From positions 1 to 64,000 of the IMG/VR virus record IMGVR_UViG_3300029516_000004: a DNA stretch of 64,000 nucleotides; one strand, given 5' to 3'. The translations under genes and the position numbers were made by a program. The DNA comes from a virus. Its lineage: Duplodnaviria > Heunggongvirae > Uroviricota > Caudoviricetes. Positions 3,272-31,970 of this stretch are shown here, in pieces. The notes beneath the pieces were generated by a model. It made no database searches and was not told the DNA's origin. It was given only the letters and a program-made list of their open reading frames with translations. How positions within the stretch are numbered: the first letter of the stretch is position 1; each line of letters starts with the position of its first letter.

Positions 3272-3601
3272 GTGCTTGACACACAGGAATTAGCTCCAGT
3301 TGCTATTGCGTTCCTGCTTTCAGTAATTGGTGGGATAGGCACGTTCCTGATGGATGTCCGAGACGGTCGCCAGTCTGGCAATTTGTTGGGATTGGTTACG
3401 GAGATCTTTGTTGCAGTGACAGCTGGCGCGGTGGCGTACCTATTGGGGCAACACGAGGGCTGGGAGTTATCAATTACGTACTTAATGGTAACGATAGCCA
3501 GCAATAACGGTCATGAGGTGATTTCAGGGATGAAACGAGTGAATATCGATAGCATTCTGAATGTTCTTACAAGTTTGGTGAAAAAGGGAGGCGGGAAATG
3601 A
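3272..3601 (+). CDS. lydA: Holin (LydA-like)
   Basis: GTG start after GGAGGG; 109 aa with two hydrophobic segments; first gene of the dar operon as in P1. Confidence 0.55.
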   Translation: MLDTQELAPVAIAFLLSVIGGIGTFLMDVRDGRQSGNLLGLVTEIFVAVTAGAVAYLLGQHEGWELSITYLMVTIASNNGHEVISGMKRVNIDSILNVLTSLVKKGGGK

Positions 3602-16625: not shown

Positions 16626-19600
16626 ATGAACAAGCTATCTATGGGGGTGTTTCGCTGTTCAAGTGTCAGCGAAATATTGAAATACATTAGGGCAATAACA
16701 TCTCACCGAGCGCCGATTAAATACGGCGTGGAAAAGGTGGAAGGCAAAAGCTATGACCGACTGCGCCGGGAGGCGAATCAGAAGGCGATAGATTTGCTTA
16801 ATTCGCTGGTGGACGGCGCGACACTGACAGATGAACAGCGCCAGATCCTGGCTGGGTACACCGGTGAAGGCGGCATTGGCGGGTCCGTCTCCGAATATTA
16901 CACACCAAAGCCGATCGCTGAAGGTGTCTGGGAGATCATGAAGCTCTACGGCGCGGACGTAGGTAACACTCTGGAACCATCGGCGGGCACCGGCGTTTTT
17001 AATGAGACAAAACCGGTTGGTACGGTGATGACCGCGACTGAGATCAGCAGTGTTTCCGGTCGTATAAACCAGCTGTTACATCCGGAAGACAGCGTACAGA
17101 TTTCCCCGTTCGAACAGCTGGCTGTAAGCACGTCTAACGATTCATTCGACCATGTTGTGGGTAACGTTCCGTTCGGCGGTCGTGATAACACACGCAACAT
17201 CGATAAGCCTTACGCAGAAGAAACGGACATGGGTTCTTACTTCATGCTCCGCATGCTGGACAAGATAAAGCCTGGCGGATTCATGTGTGTGATTGTGCCG
17301 CCGTCCATTGTTTCAGGTTCAAACATGAAGCGGTTACGCCTGCGCCTATCACGGAAAGCTGAATTTCTTGGCGCTCACCGCTTGCCTACCGGTACTTTTG
17401 ACGCAAACGGGACCAGTACGGTCGTAGATGTGGTGCTGATGCGCAAACATCCGGCAGAGATGGCTGAGAAAATCCCCCTGGTGGATGAAAGCACTCTTGA
17501 ATCGGCAAATGTGCTTTGGCCAACGTTTATTTCTGGCAAGTGGTTTGAAAAGGACGGCCGCCGGTTTGTTCATGGCACCCAGGAGAAGGGATTCCAGGGG
17601 CGTATTGAGGTTCGTGCCGACGGGCAGATTGATAACCAGGATCTTAAAGCGAAGCTGATTCATCGTTTCGAAAGTCGTATCGACTGGTCTTTGCTCGATA
17701 TGGCTGAACCGTCACCGACCGCAGATGTTGTTGATGAAGGGGAAATGCGCCTGATTAATGGCGTATGGCAAAAATATGCTGGTGGTCGCTGGATTGAAGC
17801 TGATGCTGGTAAGGAGCTTAAGATTGATGCTGCCAGTTATGGCGCGGATAGCTGGGAGGCTCTTCAGCGTAACCTGACTACAACAGAAGGCCGTCTCGGT
17901 ATGACATTTACCCAGATGGCAAATGTCCGCGATAAGTACACCACATCAATCAGCGACGATATGGTGCAGCTGGTGGACTGGATTAACAGCCAGCCTGAAA
18001 AATACCGTGAACGCTTGTATCGTGGGGCGATGATTGGCCGGATGTTAATTGAATATCAGGATATGAAGGCCGCCGGGCATAGTGCTGAACAAATCGAACA
18101 GCAGCGCCTTTCTCTGGTGTCCCGTTTGCAGGCAGAGATTGACCGTTTTGGTAACCCCGGTCGCGGTCCGATAGCTAAATTATCGGGAAGCGGTGCGCGC
18201 GCCTGGTTTGCTTTCCGTGGTGCAATTAAGCTGGATGGCACTATTTCTGACGAGCTAACAGGAAAGCTGGTTACGCATGATTCCAGCGCCAGTTATGACT
18301 CCACCAGCTATCAGGACACCCTGCGTTATCTCTATAGCGATCTTACCCGCGATCCAATCCAGCTCGATGATTTCCGCCTTGCGTTTACCGGCGAACTGCC
18401 AGCCAGTGATGAAGAGTTGCTTAATTTATTGGCCAGCACCCCTGGTATTGCGGTTTCACCGTATGGCGGGATTGTTCCGTTCGCCCGCGCCACCAGCGGC
18501 GACATTAACGAGATAGTGGCTCCAAAACAGGAATTCCTTGCCACACTCCCCGACGGTCCAGTAAAGAACAACGTCCTTAATCAGCTGGCAGCGATCGAAG
18601 AGAAGCGCATCAAGACGCCAGCAGAGAATATCCGCTTTAAGCTCAATAGCCGTTGGTTCGACCGCTCCGTCATTCTGGAGTTTTTGCAGGAAAACGGCTA
18701 TCCGGATCTGCGCTATGTGCAGTCAGTGCAGCTGGAAGGCGACGAAATGGTTTCTGACACCTATCACGGTGGTGATGGTCTGTTCGTCGGGCACCGATAC
18801 GGTGTCGTCCAGCGCAAGGATAAAGAAACAGGCGAGATCCGCTACGAGTGGGACCGTAAATCAGGTGAAAACGCGACCGGGTTCCCGGCACAGCTGGAAA
18901 AGTATCTCAATGGTGCGCGTATCGGTGGCAAAGATAGCGCGACGGCGAACGGCTACCGCGAGCAGATGGCACTGCTTGAGGACCAGTTCAATAAGTGGAT
19001 CAAGACGCACGATCGCTACGATGAGCTGGTTGCCAAATACAACGATGTGTTCAATAGCAATATCCCGTATGAACACTCTGGCGATCCGCTTGGGTTGAAG
19101 GGATTAAGCGGTAAGCGCCAGCCATTTGATTACCAGAATAGCGAGGTGCGCCGACTGTCCGAAGATGGGCGCGGCATCCTGGGCTTCGGCACCGGGCTGG
19201 GTAAAACCACGACCGCGCTGGCGCTTGAGGCGTTCAACTATGAGAACGGTCGCTCTACCCGTACTGCGTATGTAGTGCCTAAATCAGTGCTGGAAAATTG
19301 GTATTACGAAGCAAAAGAATTCCTGAGTGAAGAGGCATTCAGTAACTACTTGTTCGTCGGTCTTGATGTGCTGATGGATGGCGATCAGATTCGCCAGGTG
19401 CCGGTGCTCGATGAGAACGGTAAACCTGTTCTTGGTACTGATGGCACTCCAGTTATGCACGATGCTCTTAAGCTGGCAGATGAAGCCACTATCACGGCGC
19501 GGATGAACGCGATCCCGCACTCAAATTACCGTGCAGTCGTGTTTACCAAAGAACAATACGCCCGCATTCCGCTACGTGATGACACCGTAGATGAGCATGC

Positions 19601-22600
19601 ACAAGACATGCTTTATGACTTCGTTGCCGCCGGGCGCGTAGCCAGCGCAATGGACTCCGACTCCCACCGCAAAGAGGCGGCGCGTCGCCGGGTATTGTCG
19701 GAGTATTCAGATACCGGTACCGAAAAAGCAGAGAAGTATCCGTACTTTGAGGATATGGGCTTCGACAGCGTGATTGCTGACGAAGGCCACAACTACCGCA
19801 ATAGCTATAAAAATGGTCGCGAAGCGTCACAGCTGGCCTATCTGCCCACCAGCGCGGTGGCGCAATCGGCGCGAGATATGGCAATCAAAAACGCGTACTT
19901 GATGAAAAAGAATGGCGGGCGCGGACCGGTTCTCCTGACTGCAACACCAGTCGTTAACACCCCGATCGATGCATACAACATGCTTTCTCATGTTCTGCCG
20001 AAGGAATACTGGCAGAAGATGGGGATCTACAGTCCTGATGACTTCGTAAAATTCTTCGGCAAGACCAGGCTGGAAACGGTACAGAAAATCAGCGGCGAAG
20101 TTGAAGAAAAAATGGCGCTGGTGGGTTTTGAAAACCTTGATGCGCTGCGCGGCATATTCCATCGCTGGACAACGCTTAAAACGGCGGAAGACGTTAAGGA
20201 TACCGTGGAGATCCCGGAACTGGACGAACACCAGCAGGATGCACCACTTACTGAAGAACAACTGGCGGCGTATGAAGAATTGCGTCAGCAGGCGGAAGCG
20301 GCGGCCAAAGCCAACAATGGTGTAACGACCTCGGTCAATGAAGACGGCGTGATTGAGCACGAGAAAGCCCGTCCGATCTTCTCAATAATCAGGGATATGG
20401 ACCGCGTATGTACTGACATGGACCTGTACTATCGCCGGATCACCTATCGTTTCCTGCCGGAGTACGCCGATGCGGTGCAGCAGCTGGCGGACAGTTTGCC
20501 TAAACAAGCCACCAGCGAAGACGACGACAGTGATGATTCAATCACGCAGCAATCGCAATACTCCCTGATAGATAAGGGCGAGTTTATTCAGTTGCAGGTT
20601 CCGGAAGCGTTCGAGCAGGAAGTGAATAAGCGCCTGGCCAGGTTTGGCATTGACGAACAGACCGTAACTCACCCCGTTACACCCAAATACGCGAAGCTGA
20701 TCGCCACGCTGAAGGAGTTTTTCCCGGAAGGTAAGCAAATCATCTTCACGGACGAAAAAACGCAGCACCAGAAGCTCAAGCGCATTATCTGCAATGCTCT
20801 TAACCTTGAACCTTCAAAGGTGGGGATCCTGAATGCTCAGACGGTTGCCGAGGCAGGTAAAACCGGTAAGAAACTGAAAGCGGTTAAACCGCCGAAAGAG
20901 TTACCGGATGAACCAACAGATGCACAGATAGCGAAATACAACGAGCAAATGGCTCTGTATGACGCCTATATCGCGCAGCAAAATGAAATGTCGTTGGGCG
21001 GTCTGGAAAAGATTGCAGCCGACTTCCAGGAGGGCCGGACTCCTATCATCATCTGCAACAAAAAGGCAGAGGTGGGTATCAACCTGCATCGAGGAACAAC
21101 TGACATCCATCATCTGACGTTGCCATGGACACCAGCCAGTATCGCACAGCGTAACGGTCGCGGTGCCCGAGTTGGCTCCAACCGTGCAAGCGTTCGCGTT
21201 CATTACTACTGCGGCAAGGGTTCTTTCGATGAATACCGACTGAAGACGCTGAAGCGTAAAGCAGGCTGGATCTCCGATATCCTCCGTTCAGATAAGTCAG
21301 AAATGGAGAACGCCGACGCCAACGATATGATCGAAATGCAGATGTATACCGCTAAGGATGATGGCGAACGTCTGGCAATGATGCAGGTTCAAATGGATAA
21401 GGCGAAAGCCGCGCAACGCGCTCGCCAGAAAGAACAGGCTACTATCGACCTTCAGAACTACATCAAGGCGCAGCACGCAGCTGGCGAGGATGTGGAGGTA
21501 CTTACCGCTGAATTAGAGCGAAGCAAAGCGGAACTTGAAAAGACCACCGCCGAGGTAGCTAAATTCAAACAGGCGGTAATGGCCAAAGCAGCTGATAACG
21601 CAGACTGGAAGGCCCGCTGGGGTAGCGTCCATCACACAGACCGTACGTTGTTAGCACAGTATCGCGCGTCGTTGAAAAGCGCCATTCAACGCAAGGCTAA
21701 TATCTCTCAAGCCATCTCCCGCTATGAGAAATTATTGAACCGTACTCAGAAGGCCGCGACGGATATCAAACGCCTGCGCCCACTGGTGGAGGATGCAATA
21801 AATAAAGGCATTCTGGATGTTGATCCTGATCTGGTTAACCATGCGAATGAGTTCCTTGTTATCGGCGATCGCTCATGGCGTGTAGGCCAATACTACGATT
21901 GTGCCGGTGATATCGTTCGTATTAAGTCGCTGGACTTCGACAGCCAGCGCGCAGACGTGGAGATCATCTTTACCTTCAAAGGCACAAAATCTGGTAACTG
22001 GGATGTGAAGACGCTGGATAAACAGGTTGATGTAACTCCCGATGAAGATGCTGTTATGCAGAAAATCAGTGGTGGCGTCTCCATCGCCGGGATTAACGAC
22101 ATCATTTCCTGTGACGATTTCTACCGTTTCCAGCAGCGCGGCATGATCAAAATCACTGACTCATACGGCGTTCAGACTACAGAGTCAGGCTATAGCATTG
22201 ATTTTGTTGGTACCTATACGGACCCACTGAAGCATGCGGTTTACCCGGATCGCCGTGACGGCGCGCTGAAGTCGTCAATTGCAAAATGGGTGCTTGGTAT
22301 GATGTCGGAAGGGAATAACCGCCAGGTCCGTTTGGCAGAAGTATTCCTGACTGAACTGTTTGGCTCCAATTATGGCGATGTAATCGCGTCATACGGAGAT
22401 ACGCTATCTCCTGAAGCAATTCAGGAGAAAATAGCGGATGCGATCGCCAGAATGCCGGAGAAAACAAGCCAGGGGGCTACTCGTAACGGGGATTCTGAAC
22501 TTGAGGTCACCAATGCTATTTTCGGTACCCATGAGTTCCGGGCGTCAGATTATGAGATCACCACAGCACAGTTTGGCACCATTGGCATTTACAGCAATAA

Positions 22601-23393
22601 AGCCGAGATCAAGCAGGCAATGGACGCAGCAAGCGCGCGCATCGCAGCAGAACGGGAAGCCAATCTGAATCATGCAGTCGCCGCACTGACTCAATCGTGG
22701 GTAACAGCAATCAGGGAGGCCGCCACCACAGGGAAAATCACACCTGCAATTGCGGATGTCGTAAACGACGGCTCTAAATTTATGGATGCCTATCAAATGG
22801 ATGCGGTGAAGTTGCCATCAGCCTATGGTCAACTCAGCTATCGCATGACCTACAACCTGGTATCAATGTTTTCCGACCTTGCCATCCTCGGGCTGGTGTA
22901 TCTTAACGAGGTTACGCCGGAATTGCTCAGCATGCGCAAGAATCATGTGGAGATATTGCAGAGAATTAACACGGTTCTTGCCGGGCGCACCGATGAAGAG
23001 AAACAGGCCGACGCTGATCGGATAAACCTGGCCCTTGGCAACATCACGGAGGAAGAAATTGCCGCCAGAAACGAGAAACAAGAAGAGTTATCATCAATAC
23101 ATGGTGATGCCACCAGCATAGCTCAGTCTCTTGGTCTGAATTATCGCGTATCCACCGCCGACCTGAAGATGATGTACGCACCAAAATTCGCCGCTGGCGA
23201 GGTATTTGGGCTTCAGGAAGCCTCAGGCATGAAAGGCGTTCTTTTCCGTGCGAAAGACGCAATCAAGGCGAAATTCGGCGCTCGCTGGCTGCCAGCGAAG
23301 GCGAAGAACAGCGATTTCCCGGGTAACTGGTGGATTATCGAGACAAAAAACAACGTGGCGGACGTTCTGGCCGTCATCCAACAATACGCATAA
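16626..23393 (+). CDS. darB: DarB antirestriction protein (N6-adenine methyltransferase fused to SF2 helicase)
   Basis: 2255 aa; methyltransferase motif VGNVPFGG; helicase Walker A GFGTGLGKTT and DEGH box VIADEGHNYRN; length as P1 DarB. Confidence 0.85.
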   Translation: MNKLSMGVFRCSSVSEILKYIRAITSHRAPIKYGVEKVEGKSYDRLRREANQKAIDLLNSLVDGATLTDEQRQILAGYTGEGGIGGSVSEYYTPKPIAEGVWEIMKLYGADVGNTLEPSAGTGVFNETKPVGTVMTATEISSVSGRINQLLHPEDSVQISPFEQLAVSTSNDSFDHVVGNVPFGGRDNTRNIDKPYAEETDMGSYFMLRMLDKIKPGGFMCVIVPPSIVSGSNMKRLRLRLSRKAEFLGAHRLPTGTFDANGTSTVVDVVLMRKHPAEMAEKIPLVDESTLESANVLWPTFISGKWFEKDGRRFVHGTQEKGFQGRIEVRADGQIDNQDLKAKLIHRFESRIDWSLLDMAEPSPTADVVDEGEMRLINGVWQKYAGGRWIEADAGKELKIDAASYGADSWEALQRNLTTTEGRLGMTFTQMANVRDKYTTSISDDMVQLVDWINSQPEKYRERLYRGAMIGRMLIEYQDMKAAGHSAEQIEQQRLSLVSRLQAEIDRFGNPGRGPIAKLSGSGARAWFAFRGAIKLDGTISDELTGKLVTHDSSASYDSTSYQDTLRYLYSDLTRDPIQLDDFRLAFTGELPASDEELLNLLASTPGIAVSPYGGIVPFARATSGDINEIVAPKQEFLATLPDGPVKNNVLNQLAAIEEKRIKTPAENIRFKLNSRWFDRSVILEFLQENGYPDLRYVQSVQLEGDEMVSDTYHGGDGLFVGHRYGVVQRKDKETGEIRYEWDRKSGENATGFPAQLEKYLNGARIGGKDSATANGYREQMALLEDQFNKWIKTHDRYDELVAKYNDVFNSNIPYEHSGDPLGLKGLSGKRQPFDYQNSEVRRLSEDGRGILGFGTGLGKTTTALALEAFNYENGRSTRTAYVVPKSVLENWYYEAKEFLSEEAFSNYLFVGLDVLMDGDQIRQVPVLDENGKPVLGTDGTPVMHDALKLADEATITARMNAIPHSNYRAVVFTKEQYARIPLRDDTVDEHAQDMLYDFVAAGRVASAMDSDSHRKEAARRRVLSEYSDTGTEKAEKYPYFEDMGFDSVIADEGHNYRNSYKNGREASQLAYLPTSAVAQSARDMAIKNAYLMKKNGGRGPVLLTATPVVNTPIDAYNMLSHVLPKEYWQKMGIYSPDDFVKFFGKTRLETVQKISGEVEEKMALVGFENLDALRGIFHRWTTLKTAEDVKDTVEIPELDEHQQDAPLTEEQLAAYEELRQQAEAAAKANNGVTTSVNEDGVIEHEKARPIFSIIRDMDRVCTDMDLYYRRITYRFLPEYADAVQQLADSLPKQATSEDDDSDDSITQQSQYSLIDKGEFIQLQVPEAFEQEVNKRLARFGIDEQTVTHPVTPKYAKLIATLKEFFPEGKQIIFTDEKTQHQKLKRIICNALNLEPSKVGILNAQTVAEAGKTGKKLKAVKPPKELPDEPTDAQIAKYNEQMALYDAYIAQQNEMSLGGLEKIAADFQEGRTPIIICNKKAEVGINLHRGTTDIHHLTLPWTPASIAQRNGRGARVGSNRASVRVHYYCGKGSFDEYRLKTLKRKAGWISDILRSDKSEMENADANDMIEMQMYTAKDDGERLAMMQVQMDKAKAAQRARQKEQATIDLQNYIKAQHAAGEDVEVLTAELERSKAELEKTTAEVAKFKQAVMAKAADNADWKARWGSVHHTDRTLLAQYRASLKSAIQRKANISQAISRYEKLLNRTQKAATDIKRLRPLVEDAINKGILDVDPDLVNHANEFLVIGDRSWRVGQYYDCAGDIVRIKSLDFDSQRADVEIIFTFKGTKSGNWDVKTLDKQVDVTPDEDAVMQKISGGVSIAGINDIISCDDFYRFQQRGMIKITDSYGVQTTESGYSIDFVGTYTDPLKHAVYPDRRDGALKSSIAKWVLGMMSEGNNRQVRLAEVFLTELFGSNYGDVIASYGDTLSPEAIQEKIADAIARMPEKTSQGATRNGDSELEVTNAIFGTHEFRASDYEITTAQFGTIGIYSNKAEIKQAMDAASARIAAEREANLNHAVAALTQSWVTAIREAATTGKITPAIADVVNDGSKFMDAYQMDAVKLPSAYGQLSYRMTYNLVSMFSDLAILGLVYLNEVTPELLSMRKNHVEILQRINTVLAGRTDEEKQADADRINLALGNITEEEIAARNEKQEELSSIHGDATSIAQSLGLNYRVSTADLKMMYAPKFAAGEVFGLQEASGMKGVLFRAKDAIKAKFGARWLPAKAKNSDFPGNWWIIETKNNVADVLAVIQQYA

Positions 23394-23867: not shown

Positions 23868-24112
23868 AAAAGCGATACTACACAGTAAAGCATGGGACGC
23901 TACGAGCATTACAAGAGTTTGCTGACAAGCATAACGTTGAGGTGCGCAGGGAAGGGGGAAGTAAAGCTCTGCGCATGTACCGTCCTGACGGAAAATGGCG
24001 GACGGTCGTCGATTTCAAAACAAACAGCGTTCCCCAGGGCGTCCGCGACCGGGCATTCGAAGAATGGGAGCAGATCATCATAGATAATGCTCTGCTACTA
24101 AATGCTGACTGA
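23864..24112 (+). CDS. lxc: Lxc/Bof-like C1 co-repressor
   Basis: 82 aa basic protein; size and position. Confidence 0.5.
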   Translation: MKKRYYTVKHGTLRALQEFADKHNVEVRREGGSKALRMYRPDGKWRTVVDFKTNSVPQGVRDRAFEEWEQIIIDNALLLNAD

Positions 24113-24130
24113 GTTTAATATTACAATATT

Positions 24131-24163
24131 ATCTGGGAGATAAATGCATCTTATTTCCCAGAT
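24131..24163. terminator. Hairpin at the convergent lxc / AraC-gene junction
   Basis: atctgggagataa-atgcatc-ttatttcccagat. Confidence 0.35.
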
Positions 24164-24885
24164 GATAACTGATGTTTTGCATATTCACATGGTGTACAAT
24201 TATAATACTGCCTAAATAGGTACACAAAGTACGATATACTACTAAAACCACAACTTTCTGATACTTGTTTGAGGGGGCAGTTTTGCTTTAGTAATTTAAT
24301 AGCAAAAGCCATCCGTGTATCAAGTAATAACTTACTGAAGGAGGTGTTTTCTAATAATAGTTTTTTCTTTATTAAACTCTCACTCATGTATAGATAATCA
24401 GTTAAATCTCTTAGTTTCCAATGTTTAGATACATCTGAAAGAAATATGCTGCGTACTTTCCCTGAGAAAGTAGGCATGCCAGACGTAAGAAAAGCTCTAA
24501 GGTTGTCAACATCACTAAAAATTGAAAGTAATGAAAAAGTTAAAGCATCCTTAAAATCAGGATGTATATGATTCTGGTCACTTATATTATCGATCATCCT
24601 GATTAATAAATCAGGATAAGCAAAAGACTTTTTTAGCAAATGTGGGCATTTATCTAGAAGTTGCTTCCCTTGGTGATTGTGACAAGATAAATAGTTTCTT
24701 ACAGCACTATCATTAAGTTCGAATTCGATATATTTATCTGAATAGGTTTGTAAGAATTCGCGTTCAGAATGTTTAAGCAACAGCACATCACCATAATTTA
24801 ATATTAAGAAATCCTTAAGAAATTGAAAATTTATCGGTTTCTTTATAAGGATGAAGTAACAGACTCCTGACATAGCTACCACCAT
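24151..24885 (-). CDS. AraC/XylS-family transcriptional regulator
   Basis: C-terminal double HTH (LRDLTDYLYMSESLIKKKLL...VSESCGFSSISYFVYLFRQYYNCTPCEY); markedly AT-rich. Confidence 0.8.
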   Translation of the reverse strand: MVVAMSGVCYFILIKKPINFQFLKDFLILNYGDVLLLKHSEREFLQTYSDKYIEFELNDSAVRNYLSCHNHQGKQLLDKCPHLLKKSFAYPDLLIRMIDNISDQNHIHPDFKDALTFSLLSIFSDVDNLRAFLTSGMPTFSGKVRSIFLSDVSKHWKLRDLTDYLYMSESLIKKKLLLENTSFSKLLLDTRMAFAIKLLKQNCPLKQVSESCGFSSISYFVYLFRQYYNCTPCEYAKHQLSSGK

Positions 24886-25107
24886 TCTAAAGAGGCTTTG
24901 AACAAGAATAGAGATACAGCAGCACTGAAATCAAGAAGTTGTGCAAAAAATAAAAATATTGATTTGTGTCACAGTTGCTGCTTTTTATTATTGAATTTTT
25001 ATCAATTTCACTACAGATAAATAAATTGACATAGTGTGTAACCCCTGTAAATATAAAGGGCACTTTATCTGCTAAAGCCAACCAATTTAAAAATAGAGGG
25101 TGGGAGC

Positions 25108-25797
25108 ATGGAAGTTATCTACATAGTAGAACCAATCATTTCCACAAGCACTAACAAGTTGATAGCAGTGGAAGTGTTGAGCAGATTTTATTCCAACGAG
25201 GGGGCTATTCTTTCTACTCAGAAAGTATTAGGTATGTTTACAAGCAAGATGAAGATTAACTTGCTAAAATCTCAACTTAACACAATAATCAAATATAAGT
25301 ATTTTTTTGAATGCCATAATATATTATGCTCTATCAATGTAGATTATGATACCTGTTTATATATATATGGCAATAAACAAATTCAAGAACTACTAATAAA
25401 CAATAAATTTATAGCGATTGAGATATCAGAAAACTATCCTGATTTTAGCGATGAGGATTACATCATATCCTTTCTACTGACTTTGACAGATAATGTTTGG
25501 CTTGATGATTTTGGAAGTGGTAACGCCACCATGAAAGCATTAATTAAAAATAAATATCATGCAATAAAACTTGATAAGTCATTTTTTCAAGAGCATATGA
25601 TTAAGCCTCATTTTGATGTCATTATTAGCAATTTAAAAAAGTTATGTCCGAATATCATCGCTGAAGGCGTCGAAAACATTGATTGTCATAAGTTATCAAA
25701 AGGGATAGGGCTATGGGGCGCTCAGGGATATTTTTTCCCATCAATTCCGCTGACGGAGATTGAGTCCATAGATAGTAAGTGGCTATCAGATTTATGA
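25108..25797 (+). CDS. Stand-alone EAL-domain protein (putative c-di-GMP phosphodiesterase)
   Basis: EVL motif (AVEVLSRF), DDFGSG, KLDK, EGVE and GAQGYFF motifs in order; GAGGGTGGG RBS; AT-rich. Confidence 0.8.
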   Translation: MEVIYIVEPIISTSTNKLIAVEVLSRFYSNEGAILSTQKVLGMFTSKMKINLLKSQLNTIIKYKYFFECHNILCSINVDYDTCLYIYGNKQIQELLINNKFIAIEISENYPDFSDEDYIISFLLTLTDNVWLDDFGSGNATMKALIKNKYHAIKLDKSFFQEHMIKPHFDVIISNLKKLCPNIIAEGVENIDCHKLSKGIGLWGAQGYFFPSIPLTEIESIDSKWLSDL

Positions 25798-25850
25798 GAT
25801 GCAGAGAGTTAGGATATTGATATGAACATCTAAGCACCTCATTACTGTGC

Positions 25851-26495
25851 TTAAAAGATGTTATCCTTACCTGTTAATTTACCTTGAGGAACTTTAGCGA
25901 GCTCCATACGATAAAATGCTTTTATCATATTTACAAATGGCTCATATGGTGAATATTCGTTGTCTTGTTTAGTAACGGTGTCTGTCATTGTCCTGATGTA
26001 GTCTGCGCTTACCACGTTGTTGTATTCTGTTGCGAAGCAGCATAACAACGTCAGAACATGCTCTGTCGTTATTTCGCTCCAGTTGATGTTGAAAAACTCA
26101 TCGCCTTTTTTATCGTGTTCGGAATCGAAGATGCTTTGGTGGAGGATGTATTTGCCGGATTCCTTGCGCGGTAACTTGATCGCTTTCTGGCGTTCCAACT
26201 CCTTGTAAATCTGCATTGCTTCAATTAGTACCGGCCTGCCGTTCATGAAGGGATCGCGCAACCTTACACGCTGGCCAACTCGACCGGTAATAAAGCTGTT
26301 TTCCTCTTCCACCAGCACGATAAAACCCTTTTCCTCTTTTTCTCGCAATTCGCGCAGCAGCTGGAGTTCCATATCGCGGCGGCGTTCAGGGTAGCTGGTC
26401 CGATCAGCCATTATCAGCTCGTTATTGATCCATGCAGCAGTCATTGACGCCGGTTTGCCGACGCTCATCGAAACAACGCATATTTTCTTATCCAT
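25851..26495 (-). CDS. Hypothetical protein (Mat position)
   Basis: 214 aa from ATG 26495 after GTAGGGGG; no recognised motif. Confidence 0.5.
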   Translation of the reverse strand: MDKKICVVSMSVGKPASMTAAWINNELIMADRTSYPERRRDMELQLLRELREKEEKGFIVLVEEENSFITGRVGQRVRLRDPFMNGRPVLIEAMQIYKELERQKAIKLPRKESGKYILHQSIFDSEHDKKGDEFFNINWSEITTEHVLTLLCCFATEYNNVVSADYIRTMTDTVTKQDNEYSPYEPFVNMIKAFYRMELAKVPQGKLTGKDNIF

Positions 26496-26684
26496 AGCGC
26501 CCCCTACAAAAAAGAAAAGCCACCAGCGGCGGCTTAGCAATACAACAGAAGGTAGCGCCCGGTACTCAGACTGTGCCGTCCATGGAATATTTGAAAAGGG
26601 ATCCATCCGTACCGGGCGTGTGATGATTCTGACTCAAGTCACTTGTCAGTTGTCAATCATTTAAGATTAAAAATAATATATTTA

Positions 26685-27074
26685 TTAGTGCATGATGTTT
26701 GCCATTTCATAGGCGTCAGCCAGCAACTCCATCTCTGACTTGTTCAGCAAGGTGAATTCTTTCTTGCTTCCAACCACACCATCTGCATGAACAGGGACCA
26801 GCCAGGGGTATTTTTCTCTTACTTCAGCCGGTGCTGCATGCTGGTGGTACCATCTACAAAGTGGCAATTGCTTTTTGTGACAACCCGGCGCGGTACGACC
26901 GGCGATATGGTGCAGAGACACCTCATTAGATATTACTCCAGGCATATAGCAGGCAATGCAGGGGAGAGCGCCAAGAGCATTGGCGATGCGCCGTTCCTCC
27001 GTCGTTGGTGGGCTCCGTTTGGGAAACGGAAGATATTGTACGTTAAGATGATTTTTTGTACTGGCTGACATCAA
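26685..27074 (-). CDS. HNH-family nuclease-like protein (possible Ref homologue)
   Basis: Cys/His pattern CIAC...SLHHIAG...CHKKQLPLC. Confidence 0.45.
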   Translation of the reverse strand: MMSASTKNHLNVQYLPFPKRSPPTTEERRIANALGALPCIACYMPGVISNEVSLHHIAGRTAPGCHKKQLPLCRWYHQHAAPAEVREKYPWLVPVHADGVVGSKKEFTLLNKSEMELLADAYEMANIMH

Positions 27075-27289
27075 TAAGCCTTAAAGGACGATACTTCCTT
27101 TCAATGCGTCAGATCTGTACCCGCTTTCAGCAGACATATTCCTGAAACCTGAGAGCCAGAAGAATGGCCTGATATCATCCAAATATGGCATTATTTCAGT
27201 GGCAGGCAGGCCTGATTTAATCATAATTATCACATTAGGCCATCATGATATGGCTCTGATGGTTATTAACCAATACAGGACTTGCTAAA

Positions 27290-28066
27290 ATGAAGATCAT
27301 CCAGGTACGTAACGCCACACAACTCATTTCTTACGCTGGTAAAAAATTTCTTGTCGATCCGATGCTTGCGAAAAAAGAAGCCTATCCGGGATTCGAAGGA
27401 ACGGCCCGGTCAGATATCCGCATCCCGATGACTGAGCTGCCTTTTGACCTTGATGTACTGCTGGATGTGGATGCCATTATTGTCACCCACACACACCCTG
27501 ACCACTGGGATGAAGCGGCTGTTGCGCACATCCCGAAAGATAAACTGATTTATGTTCAGAATGAACATGATGAAAAGATCCTGCGTTCCCAGGGCTTCAG
27601 CAACCTTGTTATTCTGTCTGACAAAAGCACATTTGGCGAAATTTCACTTATTAAAACCGTTTGTCAGCATGGTTCGGACGAAGCCTATGCTAACCCGCAA
27701 CTCGCAGCAATCCTTGGGGATGCCTGTGGGGTGGTCTTCCAGCATCCGTCCGAAAAAACGCTCTATCTGGTCGGGGATACCATCTGGATCAAGGCTGTAG
27801 AGGATAATTTACGTCGGTTCAATCCTGGCGTCGTTATTATGAATACGGGCTGGGCGCATGTTCTCGGATTCGGCCCCATTATTTTCGGCAGGGAAGATGT
27901 CCTGAAAGCCCATCGTATCGTACCAGAGGCACTGATTGTGGCAACGCACATGGAGGCCGTAAACCACTGTCTGCTGACCCGTCAGGAACTGCTGGAATAT
28001 GCCCGCGATAACCAGATCCAGGCGTCAGTTGCCGTTCCTGCTGATGGTGAATCAGTTACGATTTAA
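27290..28066 (+). CDS. MBL-fold metallo-hydrolase
   Basis: THTHPDHW metal-binding motif and downstream His/Asp residues. Confidence 0.8.
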   Translation: MKIIQVRNATQLISYAGKKFLVDPMLAKKEAYPGFEGTARSDIRIPMTELPFDLDVLLDVDAIIVTHTHPDHWDEAAVAHIPKDKLIYVQNEHDEKILRSQGFSNLVILSDKSTFGEISLIKTVCQHGSDEAYANPQLAAILGDACGVVFQHPSEKTLYLVGDTIWIKAVEDNLRRFNPGVVIMNTGWAHVLGFGPIIFGREDVLKAHRIVPEALIVATHMEAVNHCLLTRQELLEYARDNQIQASVAVPADGESVTI

Positions 28067-28081
28067 CCCGGAGGCCATGGC

Positions 28082-29071
28082 ATGTCCACCATCACTGTCG
28101 CTATAGTGATCACCGAAGGGTTCAGTACATTTCATGTCTCCGTTCCACTAATCCTGTTCGGGGAGATACTGGAAGGGAAGGCTCTCTTCAGCCGCCGGGT
28201 ATGTGCGGAAGAGCCCGGGCTTATCTGGTCTGCTGAAGGTACGGCGATGAGGGCAGAATACGGGCTTGATGCACTGGCAGAGGCCGATATCGTTATTATT
28301 CCTTTCTGGAAACACATCCATGAAAGGCCTTCTGAAACTCTGCTCAGTGCCCTGGTTGCAGCCTGGAAAAATGGAGCTCAGGTGGTGGGCCTGTGCCTGG
28401 GGAGTTTTGTTCTGGCTTACACCGGTCTGCTGGATGGTAAACGGGCGGCCACGCACTGGGAGGCTGAACGGGATTTCCAGATGCTTTTCCCGGCGGTTCA
28501 TCTGGACGTGAACGTGCTTTATGTTGAGGACGAGCGGATTATCACCTCAGCCGGTACAGCCGCAGCACTGGACTGTTGTCTCCATGTGATCCGGCAACGC
28601 CTGGGCAGATATACGGCTAATCAAATAGCCCGCCGGATGGTTGCTCCTCCTTACCGGGAAGGCGGACAGGCACAGTACCGGCAACTGCTTATTCCCAAAA
28701 GTACGTCCGATAACCGCATAAACCAGCTGCTGGAATACCTGTCCGCAAATCTGGGATTACCACATGATATTGACACTCTGGCCCATTTAGCCTCCATGAG
28801 CCGAAGAACGCTTACACGCCATTTTCATTCGGCCACAGGAATGACGGTCTGGGAGTGGATCACCACAGAGCGTCTCCGGCGGAGTCAGGAACTGCTGGAA
28901 AGTACAGATATTGCAGTGGAGCGGGTTGCCGAACTGGCAGGCTTTCAGTCCACCATTACTTTCCGGCAGATATTCCGGCAGCGGATGGGAGTCAGTCCCA
29001 GTGAATGGCGAAAAACATTTAACGGAACGCCGGAAGGCAATATTCCGGCAGGTAAAGAAACTGAAAAATGA
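28082..29071 (+). CDS. GlxA-family regulator (DJ-1/PfpI domain + AraC HTH)
   Basis: N-terminal DJ-1-like fold with GLCLGSF; C-terminal AraC HTH (MSRRTLTRHF...FQSTITFRQIFRQRMGVSPSEWRK). Confidence 0.85.
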   Translation: MSTITVAIVITEGFSTFHVSVPLILFGEILEGKALFSRRVCAEEPGLIWSAEGTAMRAEYGLDALAEADIVIIPFWKHIHERPSETLLSALVAAWKNGAQVVGLCLGSFVLAYTGLLDGKRAATHWEAERDFQMLFPAVHLDVNVLYVEDERIITSAGTAAALDCCLHVIRQRLGRYTANQIARRMVAPPYREGGQAQYRQLLIPKSTSDNRINQLLEYLSANLGLPHDIDTLAHLASMSRRTLTRHFHSATGMTVWEWITTERLRRSQELLESTDIAVERVAELAGFQSTITFRQIFRQRMGVSPSEWRKTFNGTPEGNIPAGKETEK

Positions 29072-29079
29072 GGTGCAAT

Positions 29080-29481
29080 ATGTCTGTTGAAGAAAATATC
29101 AAAACGGTTAAAAAGTTTTATCGTCTGATTGAAGAAAATAAATATGATGAGGTGAAAAACCTCTGCCATCCGGATTTTAAATTCTATTCTCAGGTGGATA
29201 CACCGCTGAACAGTGAGCAGTTTATCGTACAGGAAAAAGGCCATATGGATGCTTTTCCGGGATTTACAATGCGTATCCACGAAATCTTTGCCAGAGACGA
29301 TAAAGTCGCCTGCTATCTTATCTTTGAAGGCGTGCAGACCCGTGAATTCCTTGGGCATCCTGCCAGCGGCAGGAAAGTGCGCTTTTCTCTGATGTTTATG
29401 ATCACTCTGAAAGACGGGAAATATATAGAAAAACGGGCTCATTATAATACAGCGGATATCCTCCGGCAGTTGTCAGCCTGA
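29080..29481 (+). CDS. SnoaL-like / ester cyclase family protein
   Basis: 133 aa, NTF2-like pattern (VKKFYRLIEEN...DFKFYSQ...); translationally coupled to upstream regulator. Confidence 0.6.
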   Translation: MSVEENIKTVKKFYRLIEENKYDEVKNLCHPDFKFYSQVDTPLNSEQFIVQEKGHMDAFPGFTMRIHEIFARDDKVACYLIFEGVQTREFLGHPASGRKVRFSLMFMITLKDGKYIEKRAHYNTADILRQLSA

Positions 29482-29734
29482 GTGGCAACACATTGCCCAG
29501 TCTGTATTATTACAGGCAGGGCTGCGTATCTGACAGGAGCAATGAGCTTAGCCTGGAAAGGTAATCCATTAACGCCAGGGCTACTTTTTATTCCGATTCA
29601 GGCTCTCTATAAAGGGCTTGAATGCGGCATATCTGTGAAGGACTGTACCCTGTCGCATCTACCGTTTCATGGATACTTAGTTTCTTGACCTGCCGGTAGT
29701 ACAGGACTTTCTGATGCCGTTCCTGATCGGCCTG

Positions 29735-30228
29735 TTATCCCCGGTATTTACCCAGCGTATGAGCCCGTTCAATTCCCTGTTGTTGCCGTTGGCGACGGCT
29801 CAGCCAGTCCTTATGCGACATCGCGGCCATCAGGTCGATAAGCATGTTATTGATGGCGGTTATCACGGCGCGGGTGATTGGGTCAGCCTGCGAAGGGTCT
29901 TTATCTGACAGCGCCTGCCATGAGGTGGATACATCCAGGCGACAATCCGCAGTTCGTGTTGTTCTATCTGCTTTTTCAGCGTAATCCAGTCACTGTTACT
30001 CAGACGGGTCAGGCGGTCAATTTGCTCGACCAGTAAAATATCATTGCGGTGGCTGTCCATCAGTAAGCGTCCCAGTTCCGGGCGGTCGAGTTTTGTACCG
30101 CTTATGTTCTCCCGGTAGTAACTGGCTATTTTATGTCCCCGCTCCTGAACAAACTGCCCCAGCATCTCTTTTGCCCGATCGGCAAACTGATCTTCCGTTG
30201 ATGCCCTTAAATAAGCTCTGATGAACAT
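29735..30228 (-). pseudogene. Serine recombinase (resolvase family), frameshifted and lacking C-terminal HTH
   Basis: N-terminus MFIRAYLRASTEDQ...LLVEQIDRLTRL in one frame; continuation LDVSTSWQALS...GKYRG* in the +1 frame (one base missing in gtcgcctgg run near 29935) and stops before the DNA-binding domain. Confidence 0.6.
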
Positions 30229-30510
30229 TTTTCCACCACGTTATCGCTTTTAGGTTATTGCATTTAATCTATCGCAATGGCAGAGTCCTGTCCGGGAACC
30301 TCGCGGGCTTCTCTGGAAAACATGCAGGCATGGTACATCCGAGATGAAACCTACTCTGCTGCCCTGGCGGAACTGGTTAAGTAGGTAATGGCCACGTCTT
30401 CGTAGTTGACTAACGCCACGGCTCAATTATAACAATCAATTAGAGCAATGTTATATTGTTTATCTTCAGTCACATTTTTTCACTTTAGTATCTATGTGCT
30501 ATACTCCTTT

Positions 30511-30578
30511 CTGATTGATTGGATGCGGAACACAAACCCGCTCTTTAGTGCAGCCTGGCTCCTTGCCAGGCTTTTTTT
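30511..30578 (+). ncRNA. Candidate small antisense RNA carrying CUGAUUGAUUGG seed
   Basis: -10-like TATACT at 30500-30505, seed 30516-30527, small hairpin gcgg-N9-ccgc, then intrinsic terminator agcctggc-tcctt-gccaggct plus T7; no ORF on either strand. Confidence 0.3.
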
Positions 30579-30888
30579 ATTTCATCATGGAAGCTGTTAA
30601 CGCTTTGGACCTTGCTGAACTGATTGAAAGGACATTGTTAACCTTATCCAAGAGTTCGCCAAAGTCAGACACTACTTTAGCAAAACCGCGCCGTGCTTCT
30701 TCCTCGGTGGCATTCATCACGAAATGTTCAGCACTACGCATACTTCTGACAGGGAACGCAACGGATATTGAGTCAATATCAGGCATTCTATCGCTCAGCT
30801 TTACAGTGACAATGACGGCTGGCGACTGAATATTAGTGCTCACAGACAGCACTACATATTTTCCGTCGATGTTGAAATCCTTTCTCAT
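30577..30888 (-). CDS. Hypothetical protein downstream of cre (Cra position)
   Basis: 103 aa ORF co-directional with cre. Confidence 0.4.
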   Translation of the reverse strand: MRKDFNIDGKYVVLSVSTNIQSPAVIVTVKLSDRMPDIDSISVAFPVRSMRSAEHFVMNATEEEARRGFAKVVSDFGELLDKVNNVLSISSARSKALTASMMK

Positions 30889-30938
30889 ATGTCACCATAA
30901 ATATCAAAGAATTAGAGCAATCATTTACGCGTTAATGG

Positions 30939-31970
30939 CTAATCGCCATCTTCCAGCAGGCGCACCATTGCCCCTGTTTCACTATCCAGGTTACGGATAT
31001 AGTTCATGACAATATTTACGTTGGTCCAGCCACCAGCTTGCATGATCTCCGGTATTGAAACTCCGGCACGGGCCATATCTCGCGCGGCTCCGACACGGGC
31101 ACTGTGTCCAGACCAGGCCAGGTACCTCTGGCCAGAGTCATCCTTAGCCCCGTAAATCAATCGGTGAGTTGCTTCAAAAATCCCTTCCAGGGCGCGAGTT
31201 GATAGCTGGCTGGTGGCAGATGGCGCGGCAACACCATTTTTTCTGACACGGCAAAACAAGAAGTTATTCGGATCATCAGCCACACCAGAGACAGAAATCC
31301 ATCGCTCAACCAGTTTAGTTACCCCCAGACTAAGTGCCTTCTCTACACCAGCGGTGCTAACCAGCGTTTTCGTTCTGCCAATATGGATTAACATTCTCCC
31401 ACCGTCAGTACGTGAGATATCTTTAACTCTGATCCTAGAAATTTCGGCTATACGTAACAGGGTGTTATAAGCAATCCCCAGAAATGCCAGATTACGTATA
31501 TCCTGGCAGCGATCGCTATTTTCCATGAGTGAACGAACCTGGTCGAAATCAGTGCGTTCGAACGCCAGCGCCTGTTTTGCACGCTCACCGGCATCAACGT
31601 TTTCTTTTCGGATCCGTCGCATGACCAGTGAAACAGCATTGCTGTCACTTGGTCGTGGCAGCCCGGACCGACGATGAAGCATATTTAGCTGGCCCAAATG
31701 TTGCTGGATAGTTTTCACTGCCAGACCGCGCGCCTGAAGATATAGAAGATAATCGCGAACATCTTCAGGTTCTGCGGGAAACCACTTCCGGTTATTCAAC
31801 TTGCACCATGCCGCCCACGACCGGCAAACGGACAGAAGCATTTTCCAGGTATGCTCAGAAAACGCCTGGCGATCCCTGAACATGTCCATCAGGTTCTTGC
31901 GAACCTCATCACTCGTTGCATCGACCGGTAATGCAGGCAAATTTTGGTGTACGGTCAGTAAATTAGACAT
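30939..31970 (-). CDS. cre: Cre tyrosine site-specific recombinase
   Basis: 343 aa; sequence read as Cre throughout (MSNLLTVHQNLPALPVDATSDEVRKNLMDMFRDRQAFSEHTWKMLLSVCRSWAAWCKLNNRKWFPAEP...), loxP about 420 bp upstream. Confidence 0.98.
   Translation of the reverse strand: MSNLLTVHQNLPALPVDATSDEVRKNLMDMFRDRQAFSEHTWKMLLSVCRSWAAWCKLNNRKWFPAEPEDVRDYLLYLQARGLAVKTIQQHLGQLNMLHRRSGLPRPSDSNAVSLVMRRIRKENVDAGERAKQALAFERTDFDQVRSLMENSDRCQDIRNLAFLGIAYNTLLRIAEISRIRVKDISRTDGGRMLIHIGRTKTLVSTAGVEKALSLGVTKLVERWISVSGVADDPNNFLFCRVRKNGVAAPSATSQLSTRALEGIFEATHRLIYGAKDDSGQRYLAWSGHSARVGAARDMARAGVSIPEIMQAGGWTNVNIVMNYIRNLDSETGAMVRLLEDGD

Follow-up and report, generated by a model that had tools for sequence, protein, structure and literature searches.

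The locus

We analysed a 64,000-nucleotide stretch of viral DNA (the window; positions 1–64,000 of the IMG/VR record IMGVR_UViG_3300029516_000004), which is a stretch of a P1-like phage-plasmid, and within it a foreign segment that occupies part of ref, the gene of a RecA-dependent nuclease. Alignment of the window to P1 places the foreign DNA at 27010–30383: P1 homology stops at 27010–27016 and restarts at 30385, which corresponds to position 3697 of P1 (L002). Positions 3418–3696 of P1 are absent from the window, and the ~276 bp lost comprise ref codons 1 to ~77, the leader, the ribosome-binding site and the −10 element of the promoter P1ref. The foreign segment replaces P1 DNA and is not a clean insertion. 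It contains the following features.

27010–27047, left terminal inverted repeat (IRL) of the Tn3 family, 38 bp, GGGCTCCGTTTGGGAAACGGAAGATATTGTACGTTAAG, recognised by its match to the inverted repeats (IRs) of complete relatives
27048–27100, transposon left-end sequence, conserved among family members with other cargo
27290–28066, plus strand, intact gene of a 258-residue metallo-β-lactamase (MBL)-fold hydrolase of the SaxA family (Pfam Lactamase_B_2)
28082–29071, plus strand, intact gene of a 329-residue GlxA/FtrA-type regulator (Pfam DJ-1_PfpI, a sensor-like domain, and HTH_18, an AraC helix-turn-helix (HTH))
29080–29481, plus strand, gene of a SnoaL-like ('ester cyclase') protein of 133 residues, or of 137 residues if started at the ATG at 29068 (Pfam SnoaL, E=9e-24)
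29588–30228, minus strand, tnpR pseudogene (serine resolvase), aligned to the intact tnpR of three related transposons (L003, L004 and L005)
30229–30276, 48-bp remnant of the res site adjoining tnpR, with one TATCGC-type motif at 30242–30258
30277–30378, plus strand, internal tnpA fragment of 34 codons, corresponding to TnpA residues ~624–660 (blastx)

The initial annotation of this DNA had recognised the three plus-strand genes (MBL hydrolase, GlxA regulator and SnoaL-like protein), and all three open reading frames (ORFs) are intact and have Pfam matches. It had also rightly called the cassette foreign cargo: it is present in none of the 22 matching phage records, which include P1, P7, SJ46 and RCS47. 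The extent then assigned to it, 27290–30228, gives way to the edges at 27010 and 30383 set by the P1 alignment. Its position, described as between cra and ref, holds on the ref side; the cre-side neighbour is c8, the gene order in the P1 feature table being lox-cra-cre-c8-ref-mat with cra beyond cre, and the cassette lies inside ref, next to c8.

Anatomy of a one-ended transposon remnant

The segment is very probably a decayed and immobile remnant of a Tn3-family replicative transposon that inserted in ref and whose cargo has stayed intact. Its left end carries the family signature. Terminal IRs of the family are ~38 bp long, with GGGG/GGG at the start and the ACGTTAAG motif at the end. The 38-bp IRL finishes with this motif; it agrees at 38 of 38 positions with the IRL, and at 37 of 38 with the right inverted repeat (IRR), of an element on the Escherichia albertii plasmid pEA7_1 (L101), and shows two mismatches to each IR of the element on the IncN plasmid pKP2611-N (L009). 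An inverted copy was searched for with up to 12 mismatches and found nowhere in the 64-kb window; the element is one-ended, the IRR being gone from the window. Cargo-specific DNA starts at ~27101, where homology to L005, L007 and L008 begins. Other plasmids match just query positions 1–93 or 1–51 of 27011–29600, and the IRR side of the pKP2611-N element aligns to 27010–27102 at 86%.

On the right, homology to intact elements halts at 30276; those elements run ~120 bp further to the start of tnpA, and the window lacks the remainder of res. The tnpA fragment that follows has 79% protein identity to TnpA of L003 and L004 and 97% to residues 627–660 of L009 TnpA, and is 93% and 96% identical at the nucleotide level to L009 and pEA7_1, respectively. 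On public contigs, a 35-aa ORF of the same fragment has a weak, precomputed Pfam DDE_Tnp_Tn3 match. No further tnpA pieces were found elsewhere in the 64-kb window, and a functional tnpA is absent. At the foreign/ref edge, P1 sequence stops at the first base of the IR, one shared G allowed for. The join between res and tnpA (junction A) reads TCTATCGCA/ATGGCAGAG, spelled through as TCTATCGCAATGGCAGAG, and that between tnpA and P1 reads GGTTAA/GTAGG (slashes mark the joins); microhomology at both is at most 1–2 bp.

The resolvase gene carries two lesions. One base is missing between 29940 and 29941 (ATTGTC-GCCTGG against ATTGTCAGCCTGG in three intact homologues), which sharpens the earlier report of a frameshift in a resolvase-family gene near 29935, and an AAA→TAA nonsense codon lies at 29735–29737. 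The gene had been read as ending before the HTH domain. The ORF does end there, as a result of this second lesion, but the domain has not been lost: its coding sequence is kept after the stop and stays in that frame as far as 29588, with an HTH_23 match at 29593–29734, and the Pfam Resolvase match falls within residues 1–121 of the broken ORF, the domain itself aligning to residues 5–96 only. Between them, the frameshift and the stop leave the window tnpR without the catalytic domain and the HTH in one frame, and the earlier view that the recombinase is inactivated stands on both lesions. The NCBI Prokaryotic Genome Annotation Pipeline (PGAP) labels the gene 'frameshifted; internal stop'. Its nucleotide identity to intact tnpR genes is 86–93%; each of those is paired divergently with the gene of a Tn3-family transposase of 995 aa, and the cargo lies between tnpR and the IRL. 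The product of tnpR is the cointegrate resolvase of a replicative transposon and not an agent of capture.

Intact relatives

A near-intact copy of the element is present on pEA7_1 (NZ_CP117563.1, L101 2797–11338). It shares with the window the identical IRL, the same MBL-glxA-snoaL cargo, and the tnpR and tnpA sequence, with nucleotide identities of 97.1%, 99.2% and 96.2% to three pieces of the window. Unlike the window, it has a full res, an intact 995-aa tnpA, an intact 213-aa tnpR and the IRR, and it has an IS21 inside glxA. The window in turn has an intact glxA but a dead tnpR, and has lost the res site(s), 96% of tnpA and the IRR. Relative to pEA7_1, ~2.0 kb from res to tnpA codon ~623 and ~1.04 kb at the tnpA 3′ end and IRR are missing. 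As a separate observation on the same plasmid, another Tn3-family IR, of the L003/L004 type, lies at L101 1908–1945, ~850 bp from the IRL, with a second MBL-fold gene near it, which suggests nested or adjacent transposons.

The intact relatives share one layout (IRL, passenger genes, tnpR, res, tnpA, IRR; ~6.4 kb). Transposons of the same lineage include the pKP2611-N element (IncN, L009), with lysR′-tauE cargo, the pNDM-KP14003 element (IncX3, L004), with frmR-frmA-VOC-fghA cargo, and an IncHI2 element (L003) with other cargo. Like the window, they have the cargo between the IRL and the tnpR 3′ end, divergent tnpR and tnpA, and 38-bp IRs with the same terminal motif; unlike it, they carry different cargo modules and are complete and presumably mobile. 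A 5-bp target duplication is a hallmark of the Tn3 family. L004 is flanked by such a duplication, TTAAT, and none is present at the ends of L009. A related remnant with different truncations occurs on IncF plasmids (L005 and L008). In L005, a break follows base 22 of the same IR; IS5075, an insertion sequence (IS) that targets IRs of the Tn21/Tn3 type, is annotated directly beside it.

A Tn3-family remnant with passenger genes is a well-known kind of object, and public PGAP annotation already flags all three pseudogenes. In the literature searched, we found no published name or description of this transposon. Antibiotic-resistance genes on transposons and ISs are described in P1-like phage-plasmids (PMC9600943, PMC9603915). 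The window resembles those elements in that accessory DNA was brought by a transposable element to a variable spot of the backbone, and differs from them in its cargo, which is not antibiotic resistance, in the decay of its transposon and in an arrangement that has become fixed within a sub-lineage; the variable regions that PMC9603915 lists do not include the ref site.

Distribution and probable single origin

At least 80% of 27010–30383 is present in 71 of 5,426 complete E. coli genomes, and 690 of these genomes have c8-cre; therefore, the remnant is present in ~10% of the P1-like elements of E. coli. The whole 26600–31000 arrangement is found in 51 PLSDB plasmids. The exact MBL protein is indexed in 294 public-assembly blocks, and all 10 of the places listed are P1-like.

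We compared the junctions and lesions in 13 other P1-like assemblies. The IRL/ref and tnpA/P1 junctions are present in all 13, as is the frameshift in tnpR, and the exact res/tnpA junction motif is present in 12 (not in L094). The shared junctions and frameshift point to one ancestral event. The TAA codon is likewise found in 12 of the 13; the remaining assembly, L100, keeps AAA and has the frameshift, which makes the frameshift the older lesion. The backbones of the carriers differ on the mat side, with different restriction-modification or EAL modules, and the segment has therefore spread since by descent and recombination.

Two further observations concern the carriers. A record labelled as an E. 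coli chromosome (L090; NZ_CP097001.1 423281–431654) holds the same P1-like segment at 99.9–100% identity, including the EAL gene, and reflects either integration of a P1-like element into the chromosome or a join made during assembly; of the 718 c8-cre places found in E. coli genomes, 14 are chromosomal. ISs have repeatedly landed in the cassette and its IR, in L100 (a contig of GCA_048985265.1) and in the PLSDB plasmids H24, H29, H35, H36 and H37, the types being IS110/IS5075-type beside the broken IR, IS1, IS3, IS21 and IS66.

The cargo module

The hydrolase aligns over residues 1–256 with the crystallised SaxA, an isothiocyanate hydrolase that depends on metal (PDB 6BRM; E=1.2e-92; 137 of 257 residues, or 53%, identical). 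Its HxHxDH metal-binding motif is kept, and THTHPDHWDE, QHGS, GDT and THME align with identical residues of 6BRM, which, going by MBL enzymes in general, we take to include the metal ligands. The enzyme would most likely hydrolyse isothiocyanates, which are plant toxins, to amines and carbonyl sulfide. The regulator, whose best curated match is NCBIfam FtrA (312 bits, below the cut-off), is presumably an inducer-sensing activator, and the SnoaL-like protein has weak PDB matches to SnoaL-type cyclases.

Chromosomal versions of the cargo module occur in many Enterobacterales and Vibrionaceae. When each species was represented by one genome, a scan returned 80 chromosomal loci at 52–79% MBL protein identity, the closest being that of Photorhabdus kayaii (79%). 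In nearly all of the 80, a gene of a GlxA-type regulator lies directly downstream of the MBL gene, including in Pectobacterium species that are known to carry saxA. In loci of Vibrio, Proteus terrae, Alteromonadaceae and others, a SnoaL gene separates the MBL gene from that of the regulator. This recurring chromosomal arrangement indicates that the MBL-GlxA-SnoaL trio is a genuine functional neighbourhood. Comparison of the window with the IncF variant L005 gives ratios of nonsynonymous to synonymous divergence (dN/dS) of 0.094 for MBL and 0.099 for GlxA, hence purifying selection on both. From homology and gene neighbourhood, we infer that the cargo is an inducible isothiocyanate-detoxification module.

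The SaxA proteins of Pectobacterium and Pseudomonas syringae offer the closest known systems, with 53% identity to the crystallised enzyme over the full length and a shared metal motif, and the Pectobacterium sax loci resemble the window in having an adjoining GlxA/AraC-type regulator. saxA is widespread in Enterobacterales, where it forms five clusters, all with reported isothiocyanate hydrolase activity, and is often on mobile elements (PMC7036374); plasmid-borne saxA in bacteria of the cabbage-root-fly gut is among the cases cited there. The window differs from the known SaxA systems in its host, a gut or animal E. coli, and in its vehicle, a phage-plasmid. The SnoaL partner is not described among sax genes in the literature examined, and no paper linking SaxA with P1-like phage-plasmids was found in that searched.

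One local feature of the cargo stands by itself. At the glxA stop codon (29041–29064), an 18–25-nt stretch, TATTCCGGCAGGTAAAGAAACTGA, is an inverted match to the 3′ coding region of tnpR (YYRQVKKL). A rough estimate made by hand puts such a match as improbable by chance in 3.6 kb, and it may be the scar of an earlier rearrangement that joined an MBL-glxA segment to a snoaL-tnpR segment.

Origin of the segment

From the anatomy, the homologies, the junctions shared among carriers and the near-intact progenitor on pEA7_1, all of which are directly observed, we infer the following order of events. The transposon would have entered ref of an ancestral P1-like phage-plasmid, with the IRL abutting ref at about codon 78. 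A deletion would then have taken most of res together with tnpA codons 1 to ~623, and a second one the rest of tnpA, the IRR and ~276 bp of P1, from the −10 of P1ref through the ribosome-binding site to ref codon ~77. Finally, tnpR would have dropped one base and later acquired the nonsense codon. With one end, no transposase and no resolvase, the element can no longer move, and the three passenger genes are thereby locked into the phage-plasmid.

Several observations weigh against this account, in whole or in part. No target-site duplication survives in the window, the IRR side being deleted, so that transposition into ref is read from one end; the pEA7_1 element likewise has no matching 5-bp duplication at its ends. 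The nearest relative changes along the remnant, tnpR being nearer to L003 (93%, as against 86% for L009) and the tnpA fragment being 93% identical to L009, which makes the element a mosaic whose history may be more complex. Synonymous divergence (dS) between the window (27290–29481) and the IncF variant (L005 6190–8381) falls sharply along the cassette, from 0.95 in the MBL gene through 0.38 in glxA to 0.012 in snoaL, with tnpR ~97% identical, and indicates recombination between cassette variants. As for the cargo, a protein 53% identical to SaxA need not share its specificity, and ISs inside the cassette of several carriers suggest that it is dispensable in some hosts.

We consider one variant of this history improbable: the transposon would have landed upstream of ref, and its IRL would then have moved by intramolecular transposition into ref at codon ~78, deleting the adjacent 276 bp, with tnpA and the IRR lost separately. 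Tn3-family elements are established to make adjacent deletions by intramolecular replicative transposition, and the precise IRL/ref junction suits such a route. It takes one event more than a single deletion across the tnpA 3′ end, the IRR and the ref 5′ end, and no sequence feature separates the two routes.

Decidedly improbable is that the remnant decayed on another replicon and entered the P1-like genome by illegitimate or homologous recombination and not by transposition into ref. In its favour, a related and differently truncated remnant sits on the IncF plasmids L005 and L008, the right junction is an illegitimate join, and the mat side of the cassette varies as a mosaic among P1-like elements. 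At the left, however, P1 stops at the first IR base, as a transposition junction predicts; no other plasmid context with both deletion junctions was found, and the exact MBL protein is P1-like in all places listed.

The initial annotation had proposed capture of the cassette by site-specific recombination, integron- or res-type, through the adjacent resolvase-family enzyme, which decayed later. The cargo is indeed bordered by a serine recombinase gene, upstream of which some of the res region is left. The edges of the foreign segment, though, are a transposon IR and a tnpA fragment and not recombination sites, and in all intact relatives, with their standard Tn3-family order from IRL through cargo, tnpR, res and tnpA to IRR, TnpR merely resolves cointegrates. 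The res-like repeats suggested at 27075–27290 and 29482–29735 were searched for and not found. A pattern of the tnpR-proximal res motif matched the window once, upstream of tnpR (of 100 shuffled sequences, 13 were matched once or more as well), with no second res-type motif in the window, and a general repeat search returned short pairs at chance level and no flanking repeats. We therefore regard this proposal as highly improbable.

An error in sequencing or assembly as the source of the frameshift, with the recombinase really intact, is a general possibility and nothing more; it is refuted by the identical 1-bp deletion in the 13 other P1-like assemblies, which stem from different projects, and is further opposed by the independent nonsense codon in the window and 12 of them and by the PGAP flags on both lesions.

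Effect on ref and its control region

Under our preferred account, the insertion and the later deletions would have left the following pieces of ref and its control region.

26685–27009, minus strand, ref remnant, corresponding to P1 Ref codons ~79–186, the RecA-dependent HNH nuclease core, 96% identical to P1
30385–30460, minus strand, retained P1 control region of ref (P1 feature table and homology)
30426–30431 and 30449–30454, minus strand, −10 and −35 of P2ref (promoter scan match 30454–30426)
30433–49, C1 operator Oref (P1 feature table)

The remnant is still recognised by Pfam RecA_dep_nuc (E=4e-48) and has lost its first ~77 codons, together with the ribosome-binding site and the −10 of P1ref. 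Its open frame runs through the transposon end to 27074 and forms a chimeric 129-aa ORF, 22 residues of which come from that end; PGAP labels it as a pseudogene, 'Ref family protein, missing N-terminus'. Ref needs its basic N-terminal 76 residues for DNA binding and efficient cleavage (PMC4330346), and Ref activity is predicted to be lost in carriers. The nuclease is toxic to E. coli, and P1 lysogens become more sensitive to ciprofloxacin through it (PMC4713147); carriers probably lack this Ref-dependent sensitisation. The C1-repressed P2ref and Oref remain without their gene and now point, antisense to the cargo, towards what is left of tnpA and tnpR. No terminator was predicted between P2ref and the convergent cargo genes, and, speculatively, derepression of P2ref could yield antisense transcripts across the cargo.

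Setting in the phage-plasmid

The P1 genes on either side of the foreign segment are the following.

25851–26606, minus strand, mat
26685–27074, minus strand, ref, shortened
30577–30888, minus strand, c8
30939–31970, minus strand, cre

Beside mat lies a block of low GC content (24000–25900; 29–37% against ~48%) with ORFs at 24151–24885 on the minus strand and 25108–25797 on the plus strand, whose products are an AraC-type HTH protein and an EAL-domain protein. A 2255-aa N6-methylase/helicase ORF at 16626–23393 takes the place of res/mod in P1. Other cassette carriers have EcoP15I-like, DUF2971 or acetyltransferase modules at the same mat-side place, which, as these modules vary among carriers, is a separate variable hotspot. 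A second serine-recombinase match, unrelated and with 31% identity to TnpR, lies on the minus strand at ~2594–2797 and is presumably the cin invertase of P1.

Implications

The locus shows a phage-plasmid gaining, and then permanently fixing, cargo other than resistance genes: a transposon inserted, and deletions removed its mobility functions. About one in ten E. coli P1-like elements may in this way enable their hosts to break down isothiocyanates that come with rapeseed feed or a diet rich in crucifers, and the same elements would be without functional Ref; neither consequence is surprising in kind. A more far-reaching possibility, which we hold to be rather unlikely, is that a widespread E. 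coli P1-like sub-lineage has fixed a working detoxification of plant isothiocyanates (the saxA-like hydrolase with its regulator) and, together with the loss of Ref, a double conversion to the benefit of the host. If so, its lysogens would gain tolerance to dietary or feed isothiocyanates and lose Ref-dependent hypersensitivity to ciprofloxacin.

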